Shown: positions 7,511 through 62,469 of the stretch, one piece after another
Layout of the letters: every line of letters starts with the position of its first letter
Numbering within the stretch: the stretch's first letter is position 1
Assembly (NCBI GenBank): GCA_016182185.1
Contig: JACOXU010000003.1
Span: forward strand, 57,974-121,973
Length of the DNA stretch: 64,000 bases
Origin: Candidatus Levyibacteriota bacterium
GTDB lineage: Bacteria > Patescibacteriota > Microgenomatia > Levybacterales > UBA12049
Reading direction: 5' to 3'
Notes under the pieces: generated by a model
What the model saw: only the letters and a program-made list of their open reading frames with translations
The model's database searches: none
Told to the model about the DNA's origin: nothing
Program-made: the position numbers and the translations under genes

Positions 7511-8395
7511 TGCAGCTGAATCACCAGGCTATTGCCCGAGGGGGTGAAATGACAACACCTAGTTCTTTCAGCCGAAACTGTCAGCGAAGCGCTCGCATCG
7601 CCGTCAAAGGGAGGTGAACCAGCGCGCAAGCGCTACTGTCGGGAGTGACTGTCTGGCGTCGGCGTGCTCAGGAACTGGCGGCAGAAGTGCCGGCAAGCCG
7701 ATCAGAGAAAAACACCCCTGCCTTTCCGCATCGCCGATGCAGGCCGTAGGTTAACGCAGTGCCCAGAACAACAGCTGCAATGATGGTCAGCTGAAGTGAC
7801 TGTGCATAACGAAGGATGTCGACGACGTCGCCGGTAATCGATGAGACGATCCAGCTGTCACGCAGGCTCGTTGGCGTCTGCGGAATCGTAGTAACTGGAG
7901 AGTCCCGAGATGAGCCGGTGATCGAAGAGTCAAGACCCACGTCATTGGTTAATGGACTATGAGCCATGCTCATGGCGCCGATGTCCGTGCAGTCGTGCGA
8001 TCCGCATGAAGCAGCCGTGTTGTCAGCAATGTCGGCGCTGTTGCGGATAGAGTCGTCCAGACCCTGACCTGACGTGAACGGGTGTAATATTCCCTGGGAC
8101 ACGTCCAGATTGACGATGGTCGCCTGAGACGAACTGGCGAGAGAGACTTCGGGACTTGCTCTGGCTTGCGGAGTCAAATGCTGACTGGGCATCAAAGCGA
8201 AGAAGCCGCAGATAGCAGCAAGTGCCACACACGCCATGAGTCCAAGAAGAGATCTCCCCTGTCGACATCTTACTGTCTCAAAGGACATAAGACCTCCTGT
8301 TACGGACCTGTCGGGATTGATATATTAAATTGTGATGAATCCGATAAACACCTCCGTATTGTGAATTTGGTGCAAATGCAAGAGTTCCCCCCGCC
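7481..8395 (-). mobile_element. GC-rich cassette-like island 1, bounded by inverted repeats AGAGGGGGGAAACTCT / AGAGTTCCCCCCGCC (putative; mobility unproven)
   Basis: Sharp GC shift (about 55-60% against about 35% in the flanks). A 12-bp inverted repeat sits at the inner boundaries. The same architecture with different cargo recurs at 23026..24281. Confidence 0.4.
7668..8288 (-). CDS. hypothetical membrane protein (cargo of island 1)
   Basis: 206-aa ORF with N-terminal and C-terminal hydrophobic helices. AGGAGGT lies 4 nt before the ATG. In GC-rich DNA long ORFs arise by chance, so coding status is uncertain. Confidence 0.4.
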   Translation of the reverse strand: MSFETVRCRQGRSLLGLMACVALAAICGFFALMPSQHLTPQARASPEVSLASSSQATIVNLDVSQGILHPFTSGQGLDDSIRNSADIADNTAASCGSHDCTDIGAMSMAHSPLTNDVGLDSSITGSSRDSPVTTIPQTPTSLRDSWIVSSITGDVVDILRYAQSLQLTIIAAVVLGTALTYGLHRRCGKAGVFFSDRLAGTSAASS

Positions 8396-8556
8396 AATTG
8401 ACAAGCCTTGTCAAAAAGCGGGGAAAACCTTACCCGCACTCAATTCATCACACTTATTCCAAATTTCAATGTGCGATTTGTTTTTTCCTGAAATACATCT
8501 GCAAATAGATGTACCAGAGCAAAAACAATTAATAGTCAACTATAATATAACACAAA
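8381..8556 (-). promoter_or_regulatory. conserved upstream arm/leader of island 1: TGTTATATT -10-like box, ~170-nt conserved leader with dyad TTGACAAGGCTTGTCAA, then the inverted repeat
   Basis: Homologous to 24266..24432 (TGTTATAAT, TTGATAAAGTTTATCGA). Lies upstream of the cargo-gene RBS in both islands. Confidence 0.45.
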
Positions 8557-9146: not shown

Positions 9147-10000
9147 GCTGTTCTTGCCTGAAGACTAAGAAGTGTAAGATTATTTGTTATCAAGCCGTCT
9201 GCACCGTTTCCCAAAACTCTAAGCGCTTGCCTTGCTGTCTTTACCACATAGACAAAAACTGTTCCTCCTGCTTCATGAAAACGACTAATATTCTCTTCCG
9301 ATGCAACTTCTGCGTCAAGAGAAATTCCAAATGGACCGTCGGGAAACCCGTCATGAACGAAAAAGGTATCTATGTTTCTCTCGTTTTGAATAGTATAAAA
9401 AAGATTTGAAGCGTCTCCTCCCTGCTTTTCTCTAACTTGCCCCAATGCCGACCATGCCTCGCCACTAAAAACCGCATCGGAGATTTGATTTTCTTCAAGA
9501 ATATCAAGCACCGGCCCTGGCGAATCAGTGTCCTTAAAATCAATAAGCACTTTATAACCATCTTTTTTAATTTCCTGAATCACTGTGGAAAGCTTGCGGC
9601 TCGGTCTTGAAAGAGTAATAGAGCCCTGGGAGCGATCCAATCCAACCCCTGCAAAATATTCTTCATGCCCTACATAGACTTTGCCACGATAGGTATAAGC
9701 ATCAGTTTCAATAAAATTACAGCCGGTTCGCTTAAATTGTCTGTAAAAAGGTCTTAAGTTTCCTCCGTTGTGAGCAACTGTCTCGAATCCTTCGTATTTG
9801 CTAAGTTCGTCAAAAGTTATTTGGTCAATTCTCTCGAAGGTTGGCTGTTCGGGGCTAATTGCGGGAAATCCGAAGACTTTCGCTACAAAATAAATACTAG
9901 CACCCCCCTCCGCTATTTTTACTCCCCTTCCCAGGAATACTCTTCTGGTTTCTTTTTTAGAGAATGAATTCGGAAAAAACCGAGAATTTTCCGCTCCCAT
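9143..10000 (-). CDS. glycerophosphodiester phosphodiesterase (GDPD)-like family protein
   Basis: VAHNGGN and ETDAYTYRGKVYVGHEE resemble the GDPD HR(G) and E-D motifs. C-terminal GADGLITNN is GDPD-like. Divergent. Confidence 0.45.
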   Translation of the reverse strand: MGAENSRFFPNSFSKKETRRVFLGRGVKIAEGGASIYFVAKVFGFPAISPEQPTFERIDQITFDELSKYEGFETVAHNGGNLRPFYRQFKRTGCNFIETDAYTYRGKVYVGHEEYFAGVGLDRSQGSITLSRPSRKLSTVIQEIKKDGYKVLIDFKDTDSPGPVLDILEENQISDAVFSGEAWSALGQVREKQGGDASNLFYTIQNERNIDTFFVHDGFPDGPFGISLDAEVASEENISRFHEAGGTVFVYVVKTARQALRVLGNGADGLITNNLTLLSLQARTA

Positions 10001-11119: not shown

Positions 11120-11325
11120 TTACTGACTACTGATGGAAAATTTGGGATCCTTAGGGTCAAAAGCGTTTATATTTTTCGTAGCATCTAAAATCTCAATTCC
11201 CAAAACTTTTCCCTTCTTATCTTCATCCATTAAGATAGCATCGGAAATTTTCCGCGTACTCTCATATCCCCCTTTGCTAATTCAATATATACTGCGTCAA
11301 CTTTTGTATCGTATTTAAATTTCAT
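11120..11325 (-). pseudogene. DUF2283-family gene disrupted by a frameshift at a G5 homopolymer
   Basis: Reading frame 1 gives MKFKYDTKVDAVYIELAKGD... An alternative frame continues ...STRKISDAILMDEDKKGKVLGIEILDATKNINAFDP, the DUF2283 signature, to a TAA at 11120. Frame switch at GGGGG near 11255. Confidence 0.5.
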
Positions 11326-12754: not shown

Positions 12755-13498
12755 CTACCTGCCCTGCTTTCTTTTCTCTATTGCACGCATTAACTGTTTA
12801 AATTCAATCGAAGGCTTCTTTTTACTCCATGGCATTTTTTTATCAAGCACCAAAGGTAGACTAAATATACCCCTTATTCCCCTAAGACGCGATTTAATGT
12901 CTTTGGATGACTCTCCTAGATAACTCTTATAAAATTTTAACTTCTCTCTTGCCTTATTTATTAATAAGTCCAAATTTTTTACTATATATTTATTCTTTAA
13001 AAATCCCTGTTTGGGTCGTATAAATTTTCCCTTTACAAATTCAACATATAATGAATTATTTCTAGCCCTCAATAATTCTTTACTCTCTTCGTCGGAAATT
13101 TTAAACATGTTAGTAATTTGTTCTAAATTAAACTCTTTAAAAGTTGTTAAACCATGGGATAGCTTTCGTGAATGCCTGACATAATTATTCTCAAACATTT
13201 TCCTTTTTCTTCGTCGAGAGTTAAAATTTATTTCAATTAATGTTGCTTCTGTATGCAAGAAGTCAATCTTACTAAGTTCTTCAATTGCAGTAGCAACATA
13301 AATTACGGATCTCTCCCTTTTACCTTTTTTTATTAAAAAATCGCATATATCCAGAAGCTCTTCAACGTTTTTCATTAGTTTTTTAATTGCGCGAGCACAA
13401 TCCAGCATGGATAGTCCCTCAAAAACTGGAAGTTGAAGAAATTTCTCGTCTGATTTATCAGTTATTATTTTAAGTCCTTTTTTTCTGTATACTCTCAT
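12755..13498 (-). CDS. hypothetical protein
   Basis: 247-aa Lys-rich ORF. TTGATT-17-CATAAT promoter at 13500-13545 with a short leader. Confidence 0.5.
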   Translation of the reverse strand: MRVYRKKGLKIITDKSDEKFLQLPVFEGLSMLDCARAIKKLMKNVEELLDICDFLIKKGKRERSVIYVATAIEELSKIDFLHTEATLIEINFNSRRRKRKMFENNYVRHSRKLSHGLTTFKEFNLEQITNMFKISDEESKELLRARNNSLYVEFVKGKFIRPKQGFLKNKYIVKNLDLLINKAREKLKFYKSYLGESSKDIKSRLRGIRGIFSLPLVLDKKMPWSKKKPSIEFKQLMRAIEKRKQGR

Positions 13499-24281: not shown

Positions 24282-24432
24282 ACTCGATAAACTTTATCAA
24301 AAGACGGGGAAAACCCTACTCTACCCAATTCATTTTCCAACTTATTCCATTACTTTTTAATGTGCAAAATGTTTACACCTTTTTGTACCAGCGATATAGA
24401 TACAGAAGATGAAAAACAAAATATTATAACAT
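24266..24432 (-). promoter_or_regulatory. conserved upstream arm/leader of island 2 (TGTTATAAT, dyad TTGATAAAGTTTATCGA, inverted repeat)
   Basis: Homologous to 8381..8556. Confidence 0.45.
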
Positions 24433-27224: not shown

Positions 27225-27656
27225 TTACCTTGAGGCAGAGATATTTGGTGACCCTTCAGTACCGCAAGCTTTTACTGTAACAAGACCGGCAGCATTTACC
27301 ACAACAGAATATCCTGTTAAAGCAGCTGTGCCATTACTCGGATCTAATGGAATAGAATTGAGATAATTAGCAAGAGCACCGCTAAGATCTACACAGCCAT
27401 TAGTAGCTCCTACGTTGCAGCCACCTGTTGCAATAGCGCAATTAGCAGCTGTAGGTTCAGTACCGATCTGTTTTTCGACCATGCCGGCCGTAAGGCCAGA
27501 AGGAAGAGCACCAGCATTGTCTACGATTGAGGCATGAATGGCAGTCAAGATACTTTGAGTATCAGAAACTCTCTTGGCATCTCTTGTATCCTCGAGTCTT
27601 TGGGCAGGATTTAAGGCTACAAAGACCACGACTGCCAAAACTGCGATAATTGCCAT
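27225..27656 (-). CDS. type IV pilin-like protein lacking a prepilin leader (paralog A)
   Basis: Starts MAIIAVLAVVVFVALNPAQRLEDTRDAKRVSDTQ, corresponding to pilin helix residues ~7 onward. The first ~110 nt of coding sequence are identical to paralog B. Confidence 0.6.
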   Translation of the reverse strand: MAIIAVLAVVVFVALNPAQRLEDTRDAKRVSDTQSILTAIHASIVDNAGALPSGLTAGMVEKQIGTEPTAANCAIATGGCNVGATNGCVDLSGALANYLNSIPLDPSNGTAALTGYSVVVNAAGLVTVKACGTEGSPNISASR

Positions 27657-27700
27657 GAACCTTTGAGAGATTTTGTTTTGTTAAGAATTTTTTTCATATA

Positions 27701-28132
27701 TTATCTTGAAGCAGAAATTGTGGTTGCTCCTTCAGTACCGCAGGCTGTCACTGTCACAAGTCCTGCAGCACTGACCACTACGCTGTAACCTGTTTCTGCG
27801 GCTGTATAGGTGGTTCCTCCCGTTGGATCGATTGGAATAGTATTCAAGTAATTGGCAAGAGGAGTAGTTAGATCAACACATCCGGTTGGAGTTATCGAAC
27901 ACACGCCCACTGTTCCTCCGCAACCGGTTGCCGCTGTTCCGATTTGAGTCTGTGACATGCCTGCAGTAAGGCCAGAAGGAAGAGCACCAGCATTGTCTAC
28001 GATTGAGGCATGAATAGCGGTAAGAATTGTTTGGGTATCAGAAACTCTCTTGGCATCTCTTGTATCCTCGAGTCTTTGGGCAGGATTTAAGGCTACAAAG
28101 ACCACGACTGCCAAAACTGCGATAATTGCCAT
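27701..28132 (-). CDS. type IV pilin-like protein lacking a prepilin leader (paralog B)
   Basis: Identical N-terminal 36 aa, divergent C-terminus. TTGACA-18-TAATAT promoter with the ATG 7 nt after the -10 (leaderless). Confidence 0.6.
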   Translation of the reverse strand: MAIIAVLAVVVFVALNPAQRLEDTRDAKRVSDTQTILTAIHASIVDNAGALPSGLTAGMSQTQIGTAATGCGGTVGVCSITPTGCVDLTTPLANYLNTIPIDPTGGTTYTAAETGYSVVVSAAGLVTVTACGTEGATTISASR

Positions 28133-28601: not shown

Positions 28602-29141
28602 TTAATTACTCCTTATCTCTGCATCACTGCTTATGCTTGTAGACGCATTATTCTGATTTCCTGACCCAAATTTTGAAGTGACTGTCAGGATAAACTGGAT
28701 ATTTTTTGTTTTGTAATCAGACGAAGAGTAATTGGTAAATTCAAGATTTGTATAGGTATTTCCTGAATTAAGCGGAACAAAGCTACCAGTTCCTTGCCTT
28801 ACCAAAACTTGTCCTCCTCCGCCTCCAATAATCCATGTAGGATTCGTGGCTGGATTTGAAGTATTAAGTATTATCATTGTTGGGAAGAAAGCGCTGACTC
28901 CCGTCGCATTTCTCACTTCGTATTTAAGTCTTTCTGCTATGTAACGCGCCTGAGAATTCACTTCCTGCTGTACTGCGCTTTTGCGGCTTGATAAAATCAT
29001 ATCCCAGGAAAAAGGTATTATTGTAACCAGCATCATTACAAATATTGACACATATAGAATAAGCTCTATAAAAGTGAAGCCTTTTTGATTATTTAATAAT
29101 TTATTACTGTTATTTTTCATTATTCTGTCAGATTCCTCCAA
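28602..29141 (-). CDS. prepilin-type N-terminal cleavage/methylation domain protein (minor pilin)
   Basis: ...NQKG|FTFIELILYVSIFVMML is a canonical class III signal. Confidence 0.65.
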   Translation of the reverse strand: MEESDRIMKNNSNKLLNNQKGFTFIELILYVSIFVMMLVTIIPFSWDMILSSRKSAVQQEVNSQARYIAERLKYEVRNATGVSAFFPTMIILNTSNPATNPTWIIGGGGGQVLVRQGTGSFVPLNSGNTYTNLEFTNYSSSDYKTKNIQFILTVTSKFGSGNQNNASTSISSDAEIRSN

Positions 29142-31081
29142 AATGCGAATGAAAACGGACTGCTTATTGTTTGTGATAACGATGATGTAATTCCGCCCGT
29201 ATCGGAATTAGTCCAAAATAAATAATCGGTTATTCCAATACGCAGGAACCATAATCTTTTTGCATATAATGAATTACTGCTGTCCGTAACGAAAAATAAA
29301 AATTGATTTTGAGTAATTGGATTCATTTGAATGTCGTACCATCTCTGACTGGTCGTGAAAAGCGGAGATGGCGCCCAGTCCGTTTGAAGCGTAAATGCGC
29401 CTCCGCTGCCTGCATACCAGCCGATGTTACCTGCTCCGCTGTCATGATAGGCAATCACATGTTTATTATAAGTTGTAAAGACCAGCCATCCCGTGGACAC
29501 CAATTTTGTCCCGGCCGAAGGTGCGGCGGTTGTAGTATCTGCAATCGCCGGTGAGTTCCAGACGGTTCCGTTCCAGTAAGCAAGTTGCAATCCCGGAGTA
29601 TTTGAGCCAACCGAACCAAGTATAATCTCATTTGAGGCAGCAGAGGGATTTGCCGAGATATCTAAATTTACCGCGTCGTTGGTAGTAAGCGTTATTATCG
29701 AACCCCATGAACACCCGGTATAAGTTGCTGCCCCACCGTTATTGGTACATATAGTATATTTTGTTCCGTTTGAAGCATTTCTTCCATGCCCTGTTGCGTA
29801 TCCCCACATTACCATAACATTACCTGACTGACTCATATACTCAACATCAAAATTATCCACATCCTGTACAGTACTTATATTCTCCAGTGAATTTTCCAGA
29901 GTGCTTCCCTGAACCCAGGAATTGCCTGTAGGATCCCAGACGGCATTTGACAGGCCGGATCCGTCATCGGCATAAATTGCCGTTATTAAATTGGAGCCTA
30001 TCCTTCTGTCCCATGCCATTTTCACCCATTGAATTATTCCTTTGGGCTGAGTAGGATTATAATTCACCTGCACTGACCAGTTTGCGCCTCCGCAGCCTAC
30101 TGATCCTGATTTAGTTCTATATGCCAGTTCATTTGTTGGTTTGTTGTTTGTGCTGTAAAGCACTACAATCTTACCAGAATTTGTTTCATAGGCAATATCA
30201 AATCTTCCTGTCTCCCCCGTTCCGCCTACAACTGCAGACCAATCCTGTGTCCACTCGTATCCGTCAAAACACATTATATATAGTATGCCTGAAGAATCGA
30301 CATATCCTGCAACAGCTTCTGATCCAGTCGGAGAAGTTCTGACAAGAAAAGTCCGGGTTTGTGTTCCTGTTGGAATAGGTGTAGGCATAGAGACCTGTTT
30401 TGAAAATTTAGTATTTAAAGCAGTCTCAAATATTCTATGTTTAACCACATCGGTTCCGTCTCCATACATTAAAAGACCTCCTTCCGTAATAATCGGTTTT
30501 TTGAAACTAGTAAGATAATTTATAAGAACAACAGAATTTTGCCGCGCCGCACTAAAATTCCAAGTGACCGTTGAAGTGATCTTCTTTGTATTTTTATCAA
30601 GCGCACCTCCACTTGTAACTATATTTCCTCCTGATCGATAGACATCTTCAACTTTGATAACTCTTTTATATTTGTTATTGGATCCAAAATAATTCTCGGT
30701 TCCGTAAAATTCCCAAACATTTCCTGCTGAACGCCTCACTCCGGTACCACTTGAGCTTACTAAATACTTATAATTTTGATTTCTAACGGATCTTGCTGCT
30801 TCAAGCCCTTCGCTGGCAAATTGAGTAGCCACAGCCTGCTCTCCCCCAAGTCTATTTGAAGAAAGAGCCTGAAGAACTATGCTGATTGCACCTGATGAAA
30901 AAATTACAAATAAAGTCGCAGCCAGAATCAATTCAATTACGGAAAACCCAGTATCAAAATTTCTAATTGACTTAATTCCTAATTGATCTAAAAAAATTCC
31001 AAATCTAAATTTTCTATATTTGCCTCTTGGTGCTTTATTAGAAATTAGATTAATTAGAGTACTTAGAAATTGTTTTCTCAT
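29120..31081 (-). CDS. large prepilin-like protein (653 aa; candidate tip or adhesin pilin)
   Basis: ...RNFDTG|FSVIELILAATLFVIF prepilin motif after a long leader. Large Gly/Ser/Thr-rich beta-rich body. Confidence 0.6.
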   Translation of the reverse strand: MRKQFLSTLINLISNKAPRGKYRKFRFGIFLDQLGIKSIRNFDTGFSVIELILAATLFVIFSSGAISIVLQALSSNRLGGEQAVATQFASEGLEAARSVRNQNYKYLVSSSGTGVRRSAGNVWEFYGTENYFGSNNKYKRVIKVEDVYRSGGNIVTSGGALDKNTKKITSTVTWNFSAARQNSVVLINYLTSFKKPIITEGGLLMYGDGTDVVKHRIFETALNTKFSKQVSMPTPIPTGTQTRTFLVRTSPTGSEAVAGYVDSSGILYIMCFDGYEWTQDWSAVVGGTGETGRFDIAYETNSGKIVVLYSTNNKPTNELAYRTKSGSVGCGGANWSVQVNYNPTQPKGIIQWVKMAWDRRIGSNLITAIYADDGSGLSNAVWDPTGNSWVQGSTLENSLENISTVQDVDNFDVEYMSQSGNVMVMWGYATGHGRNASNGTKYTICTNNGGAATYTGCSWGSIITLTTNDAVNLDISANPSAASNEIILGSVGSNTPGLQLAYWNGTVWNSPAIADTTTAAPSAGTKLVSTGWLVFTTYNKHVIAYHDSGAGNIGWYAGSGGAFTLQTDWAPSPLFTTSQRWYDIQMNPITQNQFLFFVTDSSNSLYAKRLWFLRIGITDYLFWTNSDTGGITSSLSQTISSPFSFAFWRNLTE

Positions 31082-31572
31082 CTGCTTGCCACCCCCTGAC
31101 TATTTACAGTTATCGTCTTTGTTTCTGAATTTCCCTGAATTGAAATACTGCCGGAAGAAGGATCTGGCAAGCCTGTCATTCTTGCAAATAAAATATCTGT
31201 CGTCCCTGTTATGGAAATATTCGGATTTACAGTGAATTTTTCATCTAAAGCCTGATTCCTAAGAGCAAAAGAGGTTCCGCTGAAAAGTGTGATCGTACCT
31301 GTTGCGTAATGTACACCCCAATTATTTGAATTTTTACTCATCATAGCGTACATCTGGGCTTTTCTTAACGATCCGATATATTGATCCTGAACGTCTGAAA
31401 CCGTATTCTGAATCAGGAAATTGGTGTAAAAATTTGCCGAGAAAGTTCCGATCAGAAGAAAAATTGCTGTTGTTAATATCAATTCGATTAAAGTGAACCC
31501 CAATCGGGATTTAGGACCTGCCTTGCCGACAGGCAGGTTTATGATATACGATTTATGATTTTCTTTATCCAT
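31078..31572 (-). CDS. type IV prepilin (candidate major pilin) with long leader
   Basis: ...GPKSRLG|FTLIELILTTAIFLLIG, a canonical G/FTLIE class III signal peptide. Confidence 0.7.
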   Translation of the reverse strand: MDKENHKSYIINLPVGKAGPKSRLGFTLIELILTTAIFLLIGTFSANFYTNFLIQNTVSDVQDQYIGSLRKAQMYAMMSKNSNNWGVHYATGTITLFSGTSFALRNQALDEKFTVNPNISITGTTDILFARMTGLPDPSSGSISIQGNSETKTITVNSQGVASR

Positions 31573-31605: not shown

Positions 31606-32697
31606 CTATCTTTTTATCCCGCCTGTAAATTGGTAAATCGGAGAAATAATAGACATCGCGATGAATGCGACAATAAGCCCAACCAGAATAAGAATTACCG
31701 GCTCTATAACAGTTGCGAAATTTTTGGCAGCAGAATCAACTTCGTCTTCAAAATAGTCACCCAAATAAAGTAGCGATTCATCAAGTTTGCCGGTTTTCTC
31801 CCCAACCCCGATCATTCTGGCCGCAATAAGAGGAATATACTTAAATTTGGCGGAGCTGAAGATTTCCTCGATTGATTTTCCCCTTTCAACCTCATGCGTT
31901 AAGGTTTTGAAGTATTTTTTGTAGACAGTATTTAAGGTAGCATCCGCTTGAGTGGATAAAGCAGTGACAATCGGAAGACCGCTTGAAAGCATGATTCCAA
32001 GATTGCGGCAAAACGAAGCAAGTTCTACGTTTTGAATAAAGGGGCCATAAATAGGAAAAGTAAGCACCACTTTCTGCCAGCGAGACTTAACAACCGGCAG
32101 ACTGATTACGGTTCGAACAAGTAGCGCAATTGCAATAAGTCCGGCAAAGATTACAAAACCGTATCCTTTCATTGCAGTTCCTATGAAAATCAGAACCTTT
32201 GTTGTAAACGGCAATTCAACATCCAAAGAGGTAAGAAGATCAACAAGTTTTGGCAAAACAAAGATACTTATTCCTGACCCTGCCAAAATTGCCGTTGAAA
32301 GTATTATAGCAGGATAAAACAGTGCCCCCTGAACCTTTTTCTTAAATTCCTGATTTTTTTTAATCTGAAGCGCTAAATAATCTAAATTTTTTTCAAGATT
32401 TCCTGATTCTTCTCCAATTGTAATAAGACTTAAATAAAACGAGTTAAAAACACGCGGGAATTCGCCGAGCGCTTTTGAAAGAGTACGTCCAGAAACAACT
32501 GTTTTTTTGATTGTGTGAACAATTCTTTTGAATAACCGGTTTTGTGTCTGACCTTCGACAATACTTATTGCCTCAGCAAGTGATATTCCGCTTTTAAGCA
32601 TTATGGATAAGTGACGCGTAAAAAGAAGAATATCTATGTCCCCTACCTTCTCAAAAAGGTTAAAATTAGGTGTTTGAATGGGCAGTTTTGTCTTCAT
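31606..32697 (-). CDS. pilC: type IV pilus assembly platform protein PilC (GspF family)
   Basis: Two T2SSF-like repeats and 3 TM segments. ATGA overlap with the pilB stop. Confidence 0.85.
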   Translation of the reverse strand: MKTKLPIQTPNFNLFEKVGDIDILLFTRHLSIMLKSGISLAEAISIVEGQTQNRLFKRIVHTIKKTVVSGRTLSKALGEFPRVFNSFYLSLITIGEESGNLEKNLDYLALQIKKNQEFKKKVQGALFYPAIILSTAILAGSGISIFVLPKLVDLLTSLDVELPFTTKVLIFIGTAMKGYGFVIFAGLIAIALLVRTVISLPVVKSRWQKVVLTFPIYGPFIQNVELASFCRNLGIMLSSGLPIVTALSTQADATLNTVYKKYFKTLTHEVERGKSIEEIFSSAKFKYIPLIAARMIGVGEKTGKLDESLLYLGDYFEDEVDSAAKNFATVIEPVILILVGLIVAFIAMSIISPIYQFTGGIKR

Positions 32698-34427
32698 TCT
32701 TTTGTTACCCGAAGGACTTCCTCAAGAGTTGTTTCTCCTCCCTTGACTTTTTCGAGTCCGTCTTCAAGCATGGTCGTCATACCCTCCCCAATTGCCTGTT
32801 TGTTTATGACAGGAGCATCTGTCTTTTTTACAACCAGATCCTCTATGGATTCAGACATTTCTAGAATTTCAAAAATTCCTACTCTTCCAGTATAACCCGT
32901 ATTATGACAAACATTACAGCCCTTGCCTTTATAAAGAGTAAGTGTCTGACGAGCTCCGAATATTTTCTTAATCATTGATTTGTCAAAATGTTTTAATATC
33001 TCAGAAGTTTTTTCTATATAAGAAACCTTACATGTTAGGCAAATCTTACGAACCAATCTTTGGGCAATAATTATATTTATGGTTGAAGCGACCAAAAAGG
33101 GTTCAATTTTCATATCGATTAATCTTGGGATCGCAGTTGCGGCATCATTCGTATGAAGAGTGGAAAGAACTATGTGGCCTGTCATGGCACTATTTACTGC
33201 AATATCGGCAGTCTCATCATCCCGAATTTCACCCACATAAATAACATTGGGATCCTGTCTTAGAATGGATCTTAATCCTTCGGCAAAGGTCAAATTAGTC
33301 TTGGGATTAACCTGAATTTGATTTAAGCCTTCAATATCGTATTCGACCGGGTCTTCGATTGTAGCGATATTGCGGTCTCTTGTATTTAAAATTTTAAGAA
33401 TTGCGTACATTGTTGTGGTCTTTCCTGAACCTGTCGGACCGGTCGATAAGATCATCCCGAATGGCTTTTGGATTGCATCTGAGACTTTATCAAAATCACT
33501 TTTATTCATTCCAAGATCTGAGAGTCCGAATTGCCGATAATGTGATGATAAAAGTCTCATTACGCAATTTTCTCCGTGTGTGATGGGAACAATTGAAACA
33601 CGAATATCAAGATCTTCAGCGGCGAGATTTGCTTGCATTTTCCCGTCTTGTGCGCTTAAGTGTTCATCTGTTTGAAGCTTGGATAAAACCTTAATGCGAG
33701 ATATTACCTGCTTGTGAATTTCCAAAGAAAATGATAAAACCTCGTGCATTATCCCATCGATTCGGAAACGAACTACAGATCTGTTTCTTTCAGGCTCAAT
33801 ATGAATGTCAGAGGCTGTATTGGCGTAAGCATATTCAATCAGAAGATCAACTATTTTAATAATAGGCGCCTCGTGGGGCTTTCCTTCTCCGAGCTTGGAC
33901 ATTTGTTCTTCCAAAAGCTTATTGAAGGTTTTCTGTAAATCTTTTTTATAAATATTAAAGGATTTTTCAATGTCTCTGATTGTCGCAAAATATGGAATGA
34001 CTTCCTTACCGGTTTTTTTGCTGACAAGAACTAAGACATCTTTATCTTTTGGATTATTCGTGGCTACTTTGACTGAACTTTCTTTCTCTTCAAAAACTAT
34101 CACCTTGTGATTTCGAGCAAATTCCTCAGGCAGCATAAGCTTGGCGGTTTCGGGAAAGGAAATGGAAGAAAGCGAAACAAATGGGGCATTGAGAAGTTCC
34201 GCAATACTTTTTCCGACATCCTCATCGGAGATCAAGTCTTTTTGTATTAATAACTCATCAAGAAGCGCACCGGTAACCTTTGTTTCTTCAAATACTTCAT
34301 CGAGTTTTTTCTGCGGAATTATTTTTAATTCCCTTAAGAAATCGTACAGGTCTTGATTCTCATAGGAAGCCATATGATTAGCGTAGCATAAGAAGTTTTG
34401 GGATACAACATTTCTATTTGGAGACAA
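32694..34427 (-). CDS. pilB: type IV pilus assembly ATPase PilB (GspE family)
   Basis: T2SSE N-domain. Walker A GPTGSGKTTT, Asp/His boxes, and a tetracysteine motif (CLTC...CNVC). Confidence 0.9.
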   Translation of the reverse strand: MSPNRNVVSQNFLCYANHMASYENQDLYDFLRELKIIPQKKLDEVFEETKVTGALLDELLIQKDLISDEDVGKSIAELLNAPFVSLSSISFPETAKLMLPEEFARNHKVIVFEEKESSVKVATNNPKDKDVLVLVSKKTGKEVIPYFATIRDIEKSFNIYKKDLQKTFNKLLEEQMSKLGEGKPHEAPIIKIVDLLIEYAYANTASDIHIEPERNRSVVRFRIDGIMHEVLSFSLEIHKQVISRIKVLSKLQTDEHLSAQDGKMQANLAAEDLDIRVSIVPITHGENCVMRLLSSHYRQFGLSDLGMNKSDFDKVSDAIQKPFGMILSTGPTGSGKTTTMYAILKILNTRDRNIATIEDPVEYDIEGLNQIQVNPKTNLTFAEGLRSILRQDPNVIYVGEIRDDETADIAVNSAMTGHIVLSTLHTNDAATAIPRLIDMKIEPFLVASTINIIIAQRLVRKICLTCKVSYIEKTSEILKHFDKSMIKKIFGARQTLTLYKGKGCNVCHNTGYTGRVGIFEILEMSESIEDLVVKKTDAPVINKQAIGEGMTTMLEDGLEKVKGGETTLEEVLRVTKE

Positions 34428-55599: not shown

Positions 55600-56209
55600 T
55601 CCTTAAGGTTACATCGTCTGCGTATTCAAGATCTGCTCCAATCGGCAACCCCCTGCCAATTCTGGTAATTTTAACAGTTTTGAGTTTTGAGTTTTGAGTT
55701 TTGAGTTCGCCAAATTTCTTGGCGATGTACATTGCCGTTGCTTCGCCCTCCATTGTTGGATTTGTCGCCAAAATTACCTCTTGAATAAGTGATCCCGAAC
55801 CGTTTGACGATTTTTTCACCCTGTCAATTAGCTGCTTTATATAAATTTCATCTGGTCCAATATTGTTCAGAGGATCAATCTTTCCATGTAATACGTGGTA
55901 TAGCCCGTTATATTTTCTGCTTCGCTCAAGTGAAATCACATCCAGAGGTTGCTCCACTACGCATATAATTGAATTGTCTCTCTTCTCATCACTACAGATA
56001 GAACAGGGGTCAGTTTCTGCAATAGTAAAACACTCGGAACAAAGTACAGTATCTTTCTTAAGATTCTGAACTGAGGCTGAGAATTTATCAAGTTCGCCTT
56101 GCGGAACATGAAGAAGATAAAAAGTCAGCCTCTGTGCGGTCTTGGGCCCAATACCCGGTAATTTTTCAAATGATTCAATAAGATTTTGAATTGCTTTTGG
56201 AATCCGCAT
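55568..56209 (-). CDS. recR: recombination protein RecR
   Basis: HhH (LPGIGPKTAQRL), C4 zinc finger (CSECFTIAETDPCSIC) and a Toprim domain. Contains an in-frame GTTTTGA x4 repeat. Confidence 0.9.
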   Translation of the reverse strand: MRIPKAIQNLIESFEKLPGIGPKTAQRLTFYLLHVPQGELDKFSASVQNLKKDTVLCSECFTIAETDPCSICSDEKRDNSIICVVEQPLDVISLERSRKYNGLYHVLHGKIDPLNNIGPDEIYIKQLIDRVKKSSNGSGSLIQEVILATNPTMEGEATAMYIAKKFGELKTQNSKLKTVKITRIGRGLPIGADLEYADDVTLRNALEGRRIYE

Positions 56210-56215
56210 AAAATT

Positions 56216-56295
56216 TCTAATTACTTTAATTTCTAATTAACCTAAATAAATTCTAAAAGCAAAATTTAGAAATTAGGTCAATTAGGTTAATTAGG
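56216..56295 (-). promoter_or_regulatory. AT-rich promoter repeat with tandem TTGACCTAAT units (upstream of recR)
   Basis: Minus strand: TTGACCTAATTAACCTAATTGACCTAATTTCTAAATT...ATG. About 85% similar to 61476..61542. Confidence 0.45.
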
Positions 56296-57330
56296 TCAAT
56301 TTTTTCCTAGTTCTTTTGCTATTTTTCCGCTGACTGATAATATTTCCAGTTTATCAAACCCCTTCTCTCTTGGTACATTTATTGAATCTGTAACATAAAT
56401 CTTTGAAACTTTTGAGCTCTCTAAAATGTTTTTTGCATCATTTGACAGAACTGGATGAGTTACAAAAACTAGAATTTTTTCTATGCTATTTTTTCTAAGA
56501 AGGTCTGCTGCTGCTGCAATTGTCCTGCCGGTTGAAATCATATCATCGACAATAATAGCGGTTTTAACTCCTTTTTTCCATTCTTGACCAGAAACATCTA
56601 CTCTGTTTGATTCTATATTTCCTGTCGCAAGATCTCTGTCTTTAATAATTGAGACATAAGACATATTATCAAGCATTTCTGACAATAATTTAATTCGTCT
56701 TATTCCGCCCATGTCGGGAGAGACGAGGATCGTATCGTTGATGCGCGGGGAGCTTTCAAAATTTTCATTGCGAGCATTTACGCTATCTGACTTTGGGATT
56801 TCGGATGAAACTTTTCTCGCGTTGCGAACAGGAAAATTTTCGCGAGCGACCTCAGCACTCCTCAGAATTTCTTTTATTTTCTCTGCAAAAATTGGCAGAG
56901 CAGATAGATGAACAATCGGAATAGAAAATAGTTCAGGGATTTTGACTGAATGAAGGTCAAGCGTTATAAGACGATTCATTCCAACGCTCTCAAGAGTTTC
57001 AACAATCACTTCAAGAGACACTGCCTCACCGTCTCTGAAGATATGGTCTTGTCTCTGATACCCAAGATATGGAACAACGGCAGTAACAGTTTTGGCTCCG
57101 CTTCTTTTGAGTGCATCAACTATAAAAAATAATTCCATGTAACAATCATTGGGATTTGGAGAAGTAGTTTGGATCACAACAGTATCCTCATTTATTACTT
57201 TATCAACAACTCTTACTCTTTTTTCCCCATCTGGGAAAATATCAATTTCAAGAGGAGATAAGCTGATTTTTAATTCTTTGGCAATTTTTTCTGCCAATGG
57301 CTTATTGGAGCTACCAGAAAAGATCTTCAC
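56296..57330 (-). CDS. prs: ribose-phosphate pyrophosphokinase carrying an in-frame ~40-aa repeat-derived insertion
   Basis: N-terminal Pribosyltran_N and a PRPP-binding loop (AIIVDDMISTGRTI). Insertion ...SAEVARENFPVRNARKVSSEIPKSDSVNARNENFESSPR... before the VSPDMGG motif. Confidence 0.85.
   Translation of the reverse strand: MKIFSGSSNKPLAEKIAKELKISLSPLEIDIFPDGEKRVRVVDKVINEDTVVIQTTSPNPNDCYMELFFIVDALKRSGAKTVTAVVPYLGYQRQDHIFRDGEAVSLEVIVETLESVGMNRLITLDLHSVKIPELFSIPIVHLSALPIFAEKIKEILRSAEVARENFPVRNARKVSSEIPKSDSVNARNENFESSPRINDTILVSPDMGGIRRIKLLSEMLDNMSYVSIIKDRDLATGNIESNRVDVSGQEWKKGVKTAIIVDDMISTGRTIAAAADLLRKNSIEKILVFVTHPVLSNDAKNILESSKVSKIYVTDSINVPREKGFDKLEILSVSGKIAKELGKN
56737..56860 (-). repeat. 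palindromic repeat-element copy inserted in frame in prs
   Basis: GCGCGGGGAGCTTTCAAAATTTTC...CGCGTTGCGAACAGGAAAATTTTCGCGAGCGACCTCAGC. Near-identical in sequence and position-in-frame to the dnaX copy. Confidence 0.65.
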
Positions 57331-61148: not shown

Positions 61149-61475
61149 CTACATTTTTACTTTTTTACCGACCGGACCGACTACATGAAAATGTAAATGG
61201 TCGATAATCTGCGCTCCCCCTCCGTTTAGTACAAGTCTATAGCCCTTATCCTTAAGCTCTGTTTTCTTTACCATTTTTTGAATAGTATTTGCCAATTTAC
61301 CAAAAAGTTTATCATTTTTAAGTTCCAAAAAATCGGTTATATGTTCCTTCGGAACTACCAAGAGATGGGTTGAGGCAATCGGATTTATATCCGAAAATAC
61401 CATTATTTCATCATCTTCATAGGTAAAATCCTTTGGAATTTCTTTCTTTGCAATTTTGCAAAAAATACAATCCAT
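61149..61475 (-). CDS. HIT (histidine triad) family protein
   Basis: MDCIFCKIAKKEIP... N-terminus and the HLHFHVVG histidine triad. Confidence 0.85.
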   Translation of the reverse strand: MDCIFCKIAKKEIPKDFTYEDDEIMVFSDINPIASTHLLVVPKEHITDFLELKNDKLFGKLANTIQKMVKKTELKDKGYRLVLNGGGAQIIDHLHFHVVGPVGKKVKM

Positions 61476-61542
61476 AAAATTTCTAATTATTCTAATCTGT
61501 AATTAACCTAAATGACTTGAAAATTAGGTCAATTAGGTCAAT
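61476..61542 (-). promoter_or_regulatory. AT-rich promoter repeat with tandem TTGACCTAAT units (upstream of the HIT gene)
   Basis: Minus strand: AAATTGACCTAATTGACCTAATTTTCAAG...ATG. Confidence 0.45.
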
Positions 61543-62469
61543 TTAGATTGTCTCTAGCACTTTTATTATATCACTCAATGACAATCTGGTTGCTTTCATC
61601 TTAGGGTTTTTAACCGAGCCGTTTAAAAGCATTTTCTTACCAACATGCAGGAACCATGTTGCCTGGGGATCTACTTTACTGAGTTTTTCATAGGTCAGAG
61701 TCAAGTCTATGTCTACATTTTTCGTATCTTCGGGTTTTTCAAAAACCATGCTCTCATCTCTTGGCCGTGCTTTGATACGGACATAACCCTTTCTCGGATC
61801 CTTACGAACTACCAAAACGTATCCCTTTTTTTGCGCGAGCTTGATGACTGAATCATTGATAGTTTCAAAACCTATTCCTTCACCAAATCTAGTTTTAAAT
61901 TTTATTCCTTTTCCGATTTCTTTTTCTGCCCAAATTTTATTCTCAAACTCATGCAAAAGCGCATCGAGATTTCGACTCATAAAGTCAACATAAAATTCAT
62001 CATGGTCAGGCTTTTCTATCTTAAGCCCATCCAAAATTCCAATAAGTGAAAAGTCGTGATAATCAGCAACGGGGTTTTCCCAAAAAACTTCCTTAAAATG
62101 ATCTATGTCAACAATTATTTTTATCAATCTTTCAAGCGCAGATAGCTTCTCAGGACTTATAGCTTGATTACGCAAAAGGTGTTCAGCTTTAACAAAGTCA
62201 AGTGTAAGACTTGCAGCACAAACCTTGTCACTCGCTGTCTGGTGATGATCCAAAGGTCCTAATCCAGTATCTACATGAATCACTTCATCATTATTTATAT
62301 TTTCTATCGGACCTCGTTGATTAGGCGCAAGTACGACATTTTTAAACCGTTCACCAGCCGGTACAAATTCTACTTTTGCGCTTTCCCACCCCGGCATAAA
62401 TTTTTTGATCACCCAGACAGATGAAACTGCATCCAAATCCGGTGATGAATGCGTAACTATAATTTTCAT
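61543..62469 (-). CDS. DHH-family phosphoesterase (NrnA-like)
   Basis: THSSPDLDAVSS matches DHH motif I-II (H-x-x-P-D-G-D-A). Confidence 0.6.
   Translation of the reverse strand: MKIIVTHSSPDLDAVSSVWVIKKFMPGWESAKVEFVPAGERFKNVVLAPNQRGPIENINNDEVIHVDTGLGPLDHHQTASDKVCAASLTLDFVKAEHLLRNQAISPEKLSALERLIKIIVDIDHFKEVFWENPVADYHDFSLIGILDGLKIEKPDHDEFYVDFMSRNLDALLHEFENKIWAEKEIGKGIKFKTRFGEGIGFETINDSVIKLAQKKGYVLVVRKDPRKGYVRIKARPRDESMVFEKPEDTKNVDIDLTLTYEKLSKVDPQATWFLHVGKKMLLNGSVKNPKMKATRLSLSDIIKVLETI

Follow-up and report, generated by a model that had tools for sequence, protein, structure and literature searches.

Conserved untranslated regions around unrelated GC-rich genes in Patescibacteria point to a bipartite RNA scaffold acting in cis

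Why should two unrelated genes, 16 kb apart and both rich in GC, be preceded by the same long leader? The question is raised by a 64-kb stretch of DNA (the window) from a metagenome-assembled genome of Candidatus Levybacteria, a member of the Candidate Phyla Radiation (CPR). An earlier note on this DNA described a conserved leader with a dyad in front of both genes and suggested a shared operator or a cis-regulatory RNA. Here, we observe that the two genes, both on the minus strand, are built into the same transcription-unit-like layout, in which a conserved 5' leader and a conserved 3' trailer (together called the shell) surround one open reading frame (ORF; the cargo). The shell recurs in other genomes, its structure is strand-specific, a long-range pairing is predicted between its two halves, and shell and cargo have evolved discordantly. 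We favour the explanation that the shell is a bipartite scaffold of untranslated regions (UTRs) which acts in cis on the mRNA, and we assign this explanation a probability of roughly 0.55.

Four copies from three genomes were compared: copies 1 and 2 of the window and one copy each at the loci L068 (GCA_040960375.1) and L069 (Patescibacteria, Hainich groundwater). The latter two were found via protein homologues of the copy 2 cargo, a class V FBP aldolase/phosphatase (FBPase), and not via DNA patterns. The layout of copy 2 is as follows.

24431-24423, minus strand: extended -10 box TGTTATAAT (TGnTATAAT type), promoter-like; read directly, at the same position in copy 1, L068 and L069 (alignment A3)
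24374-24339, minus strand: conserved single-stranded block GCACAUU...GGAAUAAGUU; GCACATT and GGAATAAGT are invariant in four of four copies
24348-24339, minus strand: X (GGAATAAGTT), 5' half of a long-range helix; inverted repeat with 22963-22954, paired with X' in the minimum free energy (MFE) structure and in the ensemble
24331-24251, minus strand: leader hairpin, consisting of arm A, tip and arm A'; from folding and alignment
24300-24284, minus strand: dyad tip TTGATAAAGTTTATCGA; read directly
24278-24256, minus strand: arm A', containing GGGGGGAACTCT; read directly
24240-24234, minus strand: Shine-Dalgarno sequence (SD) AAGGAGG, part of the shell; (A/C)(A/C)GGAGG is kept in four of four copies
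24229-23051, minus strand: cargo, class V FBP aldolase/phosphatase (PF01950; MBI2031887.1), GC 58%; nests within GC-rich donor sequences
23051-23026, minus strand: post-ORF element A'' (GTGCAGGTGTGAGAGTTCCCCCTCTC), complementary to A', with a small hairpin of its own (GAGAG/CUCUC)
22963-22954, minus strand: X' (AACUUAUUCC), 3' half of the long-range helix; from inverted repeat, folding and shuffles
22939-22794, minus strand: 3' module, a long irregular hairpin (~22939-22837) and a terminator-like hairpin (22836-22794); from homology with copy 1, pairing and a terminator scan match

Copy 1 has the same order of elements around a different ORF.

8552-8544, minus strand: -10-like box TGTTATATT; read directly and aligned
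8483-8452, minus strand: conserved block including X (UGGAAUAAGU, 8461-8452); from alignment and folding
8448-8361, minus strand: leader hairpin, with dyad tip TTGACAAGGCTTGTCAA at 8414-8398 and arm A' at 8392-8370
8355-8351, minus strand: shell SD GGAGG; read directly and aligned
8288-7668, minus strand: cargo, a 206-aa orphan membrane-anchored protein (NCBI HYT08_04580)
7505-7482, minus strand: post-ORF element A''
7441-7432, minus strand: X' (ACUUAUUCCA); from inverted repeat, folding and shuffles
7426-7285, minus strand: 3' module, a long hairpin and a terminator-like hairpin (7327-7285)

All leader features described in the earlier note (-10 box, conserved blocks, dyad, inverted repeat and SD) are present in both copies, and its GGTTTTCCCCG is also located in the copy 2 leader. 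The copy 1 dyad, which had been placed at 8396-8412, lies 2 nt away, at 8414-8398. In L068 and L069, a TTGACT sits 19 nt upstream of the -10 box, from which transcription would start. The copy 2 leader comprises ~190 nt, and its cargo begins with a TTG 4 nt after the SD. In copy 1, the GC-rich insert spans ~8330 to 7506 and the cargo has a separate AGGAGG of its own ahead of the ATG at 8288. Both units are closed by a terminator-like hairpin with a 20-pair stem, followed on the minus strand by TTTATGTC or TTTTCAAT, a tail that is only moderately T-rich. The two cargos are the only strongly GC-rich islands of the window, with 300-nt peaks of 0.59 and 0.62 versus ~0.37 overall.

The leaders of the two copies align over ~120 nt with 75% identity (blastn E = 2e-17; alignment A1), which is in good agreement with the homology proposed earlier. 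The 16-mer GGCGGGGGGAACTCTT occurs exactly twice in the 64 kb, where 0.27 occurrences are expected, and both lie at the units. Two further features were absent from the earlier note. Firstly, the 3' trailers of ~250 nt are homologous as well; ~155 nt can be aligned (blastn E = 1e-27; alignment A2), including an invariant block of 32 nt. Secondly, an inverted repeat formed by X (GGAATAAGT) and X' (ACTTATTCC) encloses both ORFs. The repeat formed by A' (GGGGGGAACTCTTACATCTACAC) and A'' (GTGCAGGTGTGAGAGTTCCCCC) comprises 22 nt with 86% complementarity in copy 2; it is found in both window copies (4 matches; none of 100 shuffles had as many) and in L068 and L069. A chimeric assembly was rejected, the same junctions recurring in four assemblies. 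In particular, the junctions of copy 2 are not chimeric because an independent Logan assembly (L027, SRR12113430) matches 4.7 kb around this copy at 100% identity, junctions included.

FBPase homologues in AT-rich, CPR-like contigs are P0001 (~95-96% identity; L068) and P0095 (80%; L069). At both loci the FBPase gene has a GC content of 56-58%, compared to 37-39% in the remainder of the locus, and the shell is complete. Its leader has TGTTATAAT, GCACATTGAAATTTGGAATAAGT, the long hairpin and the SD, and its trailer has A'', X' and the two 3' hairpins, one long and one terminator-like (alignments A3 and A4; nhmmer E = 1e-35 to 1e-67). The shared cis element that had been postulated in front of unrelated genes is thus recovered in other genomes, with its paired regions kept. 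No trace of the shell was detected at the nine donor-type loci examined (L070-L079; 63-67% GC). Their FBPases are 78-92% identical to the CPR proteins, they have a DUF1122-FBPase synteny in common, and their named relatives belong to Dehalococcoidia/Chloroflexota. Nearest to the window FBPase are the donors P0002 (92%) and P0003 (88-91%). At four of these loci (L070, L071, L072 and L079) a conserved GGAAC-(~17 nt)-CGTCT was noticed at most ~150 nt past the FBPase stop codon, which resembles a promoter of the extracytoplasmic function (ECF) sigma type for the next gene.

Neither the window nor ~40 kb of flanking sequence of L068 and L069 holds extra copies (blastn, nhmmer), phages and plasmids gave no blastn match, and literature searches returned no description of the element. 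Exact-pattern scans for the leader yielded chance matches only, none with a second shell motif, in genome contigs (26), viral contigs and metagenome contigs (2, GC-rich); the patterns represent the window variant (CCCCG/CGGGGGG), so that the L068/L069 variant (CCCTG/CAGGGGG) would escape, and they are too window-specific for these negative scans to say much about distribution.

Does the leader act as DNA or as RNA? Compared to shuffled sequences, the leader folds of copy 2 (195 nt, -64.1 kcal/mol) and copy 1 reach z = -6.7 and z = -5.3, respectively. The dyad turns out to be only the tip of a hairpin of 36-40 bp (~85 nt). The distance from the -10 box down to the dyad is ~120 nt in the window copies and ~190 nt in L068 and L069. 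The tips of the four copies, TTGACAAGGCTTGTCAA, TTGATAAAGTTTATCGA, CTGATCGGATTTGTAATCAG and CTGATTAAATCTAGTCAG, measure 17, 17, 20 and 18 nt, and their pairing is kept via compensatory and G-U changes, e.g., CCCCG/CGGGG to CCCTG/CAGGG. Every leader hairpin contains 6-7 G-U pairs. In the sense orientation, the four hairpins reach -45 to -49 kcal/mol versus -27 to -35.5 kcal/mol in antisense, i.e., the sense strand is better by 12-18 kcal/mol. In copy 2, whose 99-nt stretch from X to the SD has 7 G-U pairs, the two values are -45.5 and -27.1 kcal/mol. This asymmetry suggests that the structure is used in the sense transcript, and it speaks against an operator in duplex DNA or a site of symmetric recombination.

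The alignments are in good agreement with this. In the four-copy leader alignment (P1 and hairpin), 96.3% of the cells are paired versus 48-55% in slid controls, and seven pairs, three of them inside the hairpin, are changed on both sides versus 1-3 in the controls. For the 3' part (A'' hairpin and 3' module) the values are 93.5% versus 47-57%, with 10 both-side changes versus 1-5. Structure prediction and covariation, by which the earlier note had proposed to check its leaders and any further copies, thus return a consistent fold. As to its choice between operator and cis-regulatory RNA, the RNA option fits, with pairing kept and the sense strand more stable, and an operator at the dyad is not supported, the dyad being variable in sequence and length. 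Taken together, the data point to the leader as a cis-acting RNA element rather than a protein operator. The long, near-perfect duplex of the leader is a plausible substrate of RNase III.

Known RNA families do not account for the element. Rfam 15 gave no match at gathering score in the whole window, and permissive Rfam scans of both units and L068 returned sub-threshold noise from unrelated families (best E = 0.14-1.4); a known riboswitch or other known RNA was rejected on the lack of an Rfam match. A match to group II intron domain V (RF04356, 20.3 versus 61 bits, E = 0.18) at 11138-11179 on the minus strand of L068, antisense of A'', was dismissed as noise, its strand and its order with respect to the ORF both being wrong. 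An internal promoter at the TTGAAA of the conserved block was rejected as well, since no acceptable -10 box follows the TTGAAA in any copy.

How are the two halves of the shell connected? Four full-length transcripts (1.26-1.68 kb) were folded, and both MFE structures and ensemble probabilities were evaluated. X pairs with X' (GGAAUAAGU with ACUUAUUCC) in all four MFE structures, spanning 1.0-1.4 kb, with P ~0.9-1.0. The duplexes reach -14 to -18 kcal/mol and are better than 985-1000 of 1000 shuffles. Beyond the core, the extensions vary and yet remain complementary, G-U pairs included: GUAAUGG/CC(C)AUUAC in copy 2, UUUGG/CCAAA in L068 and AUUUGG...GUAAA/UUUAC...UCAAGU in L069. A conserved complementarity between 5' and 3' UTR, of the type known from hbs and icaR, is thereby found in four of four units. 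X is situated ~100 nt upstream of the SD, and the accessibility of the SD is inconsistent among the copies.

According to the earlier note, GGGGGGAACUCU in the leader can pair with AGAGUUCCCCC just after the stop codon and would thereby clamp the whole mRNA. The complementarity is real: A' and A'' match over 19-23 bp in each of the four units. The A':A'' core has Watson-Crick pairs only, while the local helix is rich in G-U pairs. The pairing itself is not predicted. In every MFE structure A' pairs locally with A, and A'' folds into its own GAGAG/CUCUC hairpin; in the ensemble of the full-length transcripts, local pairing of A' has P 0.91-0.99 and A':A'' is ~0. When arm A is barred from pairing, A':A'' forms in all four units at a cost of 19-27 kcal/mol, and X:X' stays. 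According to these models, the predicted clamp of the whole mRNA is X:X', and A':A'' could form only as a factor-dependent alternative.

A different line of evidence comes from how shell and cargo evolved. The neighbouring Beta-lactamase2 protein of the window is 57% identical to that of L068 or L069, and L068 and L069 share 79% with each other; between window and L068, the gene shows a dS (synonymous substitutions per synonymous site) of 2.5. For FBPase the relation is reversed: window and L068 share ~95% of amino acids and 89% of nucleotides (dS 0.52), and L068 and L069 only 80% of amino acids (dS 1.8). Shell similarity tracks the hosts, with L068 near L069 and copy 1 near copy 2. Examined site by site, L068 resembles L069 in promoter, leader and A', turns window-like immediately 3' of A', stays so across SD, ORF, A'' and spacer until about X', and is again L069-like in the terminator; the right-hand breakpoint is not sharp. 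In the protein tree and a four-point test, the FBPases of window and L068 nest with P0002/P0003 (91-92%) and that of L069 with P0077/P0080/P0074 (85-88%), i.e., the CPR FBPases derive from two different donor clades. The shell is vertically inherited with the host lineage, and the ORF segment was replaced horizontally more than once. The discordance and the two donor clades imply that the slot received a new FBPase gene on at least two occasions and an unrelated gene on one, within a shell that was kept. Replacement probably proceeded via homologous recombination in conserved shell blocks: the breakpoints lie within such blocks, and a Pfam scan of the ~60 ORFs of the window revealed no integrase, transposase, invertase or recombinase.

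Several observations concern the cargos themselves. For the orphan cargo of copy 1, the homologue search returned no close relatives and did not trace its source; a single distant homologue (P0122, E = 1e-6) suggests, at the sequence level, that it is a real gene. At 8339-8327, 3' of the copy 1 shell SD, TTCATCACAATTT weakly resembles the first codons of FBPase (TTGGTTACAATTT in copy 2, TTGATCACGATAT in L068), out of register with the SD. A derivation of copy 1 from an FBPase-bearing unit whose ORF has since been replaced is hinted at by this similarity. Both cargos have the sequence GC(A/T)GGTTCACCTCC shortly 5' of A'' (23095-23082 and 7623-7610); 13 of 14 positions are identical, possibly by chance (blastn E = 0.47). 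In copy 2 the SD is predicted to pair with the CCUCC stretch of this sequence (P ~0.96), which recalls the UCCCC motif of icaR; the other copies gave inconsistent results.

The start of the CPR FBPases is annotated at differing codons, which results in forms of 375, 388, 392 and 393 aa within one 90% cluster (window 24229 / 23051; L068 9962). The start is likely the TTG directly after the shell SD. The junction at the start codon differs by FBPase type: in window and L068 the TTG follows 4 nt after the SD, unlike in L069, where the ATG lies ~70 nt past the shell SD behind an AT-rich spacer and has no clear SD of its own (9935-10000). A C-terminal extension of the window FBPase (…TTRVQPVPAGSPPPP…) is also found in some donor proteins (P0077, P0048).

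In the scaffold that we favour, a unit would open with an extended -10 promoter and one or two small hairpins. Next would come a conserved single-stranded block with GGAAUAAGU (X) at its end, the 36-40-bp G-U-rich hairpin of A, tip and A', the SD and the ORF. After the ORF would follow the small conserved A'' hairpin, a variable spacer, ACUUAUUCC (X'), the long irregular hairpin and the terminator-like hairpin. If the RNA folds in the cell as predicted, X:X' would close the ORF, across 1.0-1.4 kb, into a loop flanked by stable stem-loops on its 5' and 3' sides. Its role would most likely be post-transcriptional control in cis, by protection from ribonucleases or by controlled access for them. 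Candidate routes would be 5'-end-dependent decay, cleavage of the long duplex by RNase III, and 3' exonucleases; translation may be tuned, too. A role of the scaffold in stability, processing or translation is what we infer from this arrangement.

Several points weigh against the scaffold. The four copies from three genomes represent two closely related pairs, and the covariation therefore rests on few independent events; the X:X' core is invariant and hence uninformative in this respect. MFE structures cannot be relied on for RNAs as long as 1.3-1.7 kb, and any fold across the ORF would be disturbed by translation. The scaffold model does not account for the conserved 22-nt complementarity of A' and A''. 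No partner that sequesters the SD is conserved in the four copies, and thus there is no obvious switch or expression platform. Finally, the flanks could be kept partly as homology for recombination rather than for an RNA function.

One of these points, the complementarity of A' and A'', is the starting point of a two-state RNA switch, in which a trans factor (protein, small RNA or ligand) occupies either arm A or the conserved GCACAUUGAAAUUU block and frees A' for A'', with altered decay or translation as the result. That the 19-23 bp are kept in all four units and become the MFE pairing, alongside X:X', once arm A is blocked speaks for this model, as does the contrast between the G-U-rich local helix and the all-Watson-Crick core of A':A''. 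Candidate binding sites would be the single-stranded block and the UUCCCC loop of A'', both of them invariant. However, the alternative state is expensive (19-27 kcal/mol) and has an ensemble probability of ~0, neither state occludes the SD consistently, and no recognisable aptamer-like junction, Rfam match or candidate regulator was identified. With regard to a riboswitch-like leader, the four sequences, a small sample for this purpose, form a single long hairpin and a conserved single-stranded block, with no U-tract after the hairpin and no conserved anti-SD. Sequestration of the SD by the trailer or by arm A was tried and rejected, the partners being inconsistent among the copies. We consider the switch unlikely.

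A second proposal, which we hold to be just as tentative, extends the scaffold rather than replacing it. The shell would be a "domestication chassis" of Microgenomates-type CPR bacteria: promoter, leader and trailer would be inherited vertically and offer one slot for GC-rich genes of Chloroflexota-like neighbours or hosts, and recombination in the conserved RNA-structure blocks would pass these genes from one CPR lineage to another. Transcription, translation signals and protection from nucleases, which foreign ORFs lack, would come from the scaffold. If true, this would be a recombinase-free, RNA-structured analogue of the integron slot.

A mobile or recombining cassette at the DNA level is improbable. 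Here the ORF would be moved or inverted by means of A'/A'' (and X/X'), acting as terminal repeats or as sites for a recombinase, as in an integron cassette, a miniature inverted-repeat transposable element (MITE) with cargo, a pdif module or an invertible gene. Each cargo is indeed surrounded by a 22-nt inverted repeat; the cargos differ, are foreign and GC-rich; the segment exchanged between window and L068 begins right after A' and extends past A''; and the hairpin, with conserved arms and a variable tip, is loosely attC-like. On the other hand, the ~60 ORFs of the window comprise no integrase, transposase or invertase, and no target-site duplication can be read beside A'/A''. The A' of L068 is host-type, not donor-type, which places the left breakpoint inside or after the repeat and fits homologous recombination rather than transposition. 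Moreover, the structure is strand-asymmetric via G-U pairs, the core motifs are not in attC order (RYYYAAC...GTTRRRY), the ORF has one orientation in all assemblies, and copies in the window and in the L068/L069 flanks are platform-linked only.

Hardly better are the prospects of an explanation without dedicated function, according to which the shell consists of the native UTRs of FBPase, duplicated once in this genome and similar by descent and recombination, with ordinary stem-loops. It would account for FBPase in three of four copies, with only one non-FBPase cargo known, and copy 1 may itself come from an FBPase-bearing copy, given the weak 13-nt resemblance to the FBPase start past its shell SD. 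Against it stand the invariant blocks of 17-32 nt and the pairing kept between hosts with 57% identity of the neighbouring protein and saturated synonymous sites, while identity in the intergenic DNA beyond the blocks is down to 30-50%. That the dyad is an operator of a DNA-binding regulator is very improbable: a perfect or near-perfect palindrome with YTGA...TCAR ends in all four copies does lie between promoter and gene and is common to two genes, but its half-sites and spacing (17, 17, 20 and 18 nt) vary with compensatory changes, G-U pairs leave it imperfect as DNA, and it sits ~120 nt (window) or ~190 nt (L068/L069) past the -10 box within a much longer hairpin.

Three further features of the window are reported for completeness. 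A second repeat of ~70-110 nt, AT-rich and palindromic (…AAAATTTCTAATTA…CTAATTAACCTAAAT … AGAAATTAGGTCAATTAGGTTAATTAGG), occurs at 30953-31064, 56207-56301 and 61473-61543. The copies at 56.2 and 61.5 kb are intergenic; the one at 31.0 kb lies within the ORF 29120-31081 and overlaps 31078-31572. It may represent a family of bidirectional terminators or of hairpins like repetitive extragenic palindromes (REPs). At 27225-28132, two tandem ORFs of 143 aa, separated by 476 bp and with a DNA identity of up to 90%, adjoin pilin/type IV pilus genes (N_methyl protein 28602-29141, T2SSF 31606-32697, T2SSE 32694-34427). The ORF at 12755-13498 carries a HEPN AbiV domain (E = 1e-15), which makes it a candidate for defence by abortive infection in a CPR genome.

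If the shell works as we infer, it would represent a new family of cis-acting bacterial mRNA architectures, in which 5' and 3' UTRs co-evolve and enclose an ORF. The RNA biology of CPR/Patescibacteria is almost unknown. A vertically inherited shell with swapped GC-rich cargo offers a testable handle on how ultra-small episymbionts install and express genes from unrelated bacteria, and the shell would provide ready-made parts (promoter, stabilising UTRs) for gene expression in these organisms.

How does the shell compare to known systems? In the processing stems of rRNA operons, which are substrates of RNase III, complementary flanks pair and enclose a long functional segment. The shell likewise has complementary flanks around a segment; it differs in that the segment is a translated ORF and the closing helix is shorter. 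REPs affect mRNA stability. With REPs and REPINs the shell has in common an extragenic motif of ~22 nt, of which two inverted copies build a long hairpin and a third stands alone nearby. In contrast to them, the motif is present at two shell-tied loci only in 64 kb, its order relative to promoter, SD and ORF is fixed, and the window contains no RAYT (Y1 transposase) gene. Transposons with terminal inverted repeats and MITEs share such repeats with the shell (A'/A''), but flanking direct repeats, a transposase and dispersed copies are missing in the window and, as regards copies, in the L068/L069 flanks.

An integron cassette resembles the shell in that an ORF slot with changing horizontal content lies beside a hairpin with a conserved stem base and a variable tip. 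The window, however, is without an integrase, the units are 16 kb apart and form no array, and the breakpoints look like homologous recombination. The attC site belongs 3' of the ORF, whereas the full shell hairpin is located upstream in the 5' UTR. In the shell, the arm with GTT precedes the arm with AAC whichever strand is read, and GTT is followed by pyrimidines (GTTCCCC).

The closest parallels are two single-gene cases. In hbs of B. subtilis, a 14-bp interaction between 5' and 3' UTR modulates cleavage by RNase Y in the leader (PMC5737220). In icaR of S. aureus, the 3' UTR pairs with the 5' UTR at the SD, which blocks initiation and creates a substrate of RNase III (PMC3868564). Both share with the shell a 5'/3'-UTR helix of 10-16 bp within one mRNA, beside highly structured UTRs. 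Pairing in icaR involves the SD, whereas the 5' partner in the shell stays clear of the SD, ~100 nt upstream. While the precedents to date concern single genes, the shell, as seen in sequence and predicted folds, is a repeated family on unrelated ORFs that is conserved across genomes.

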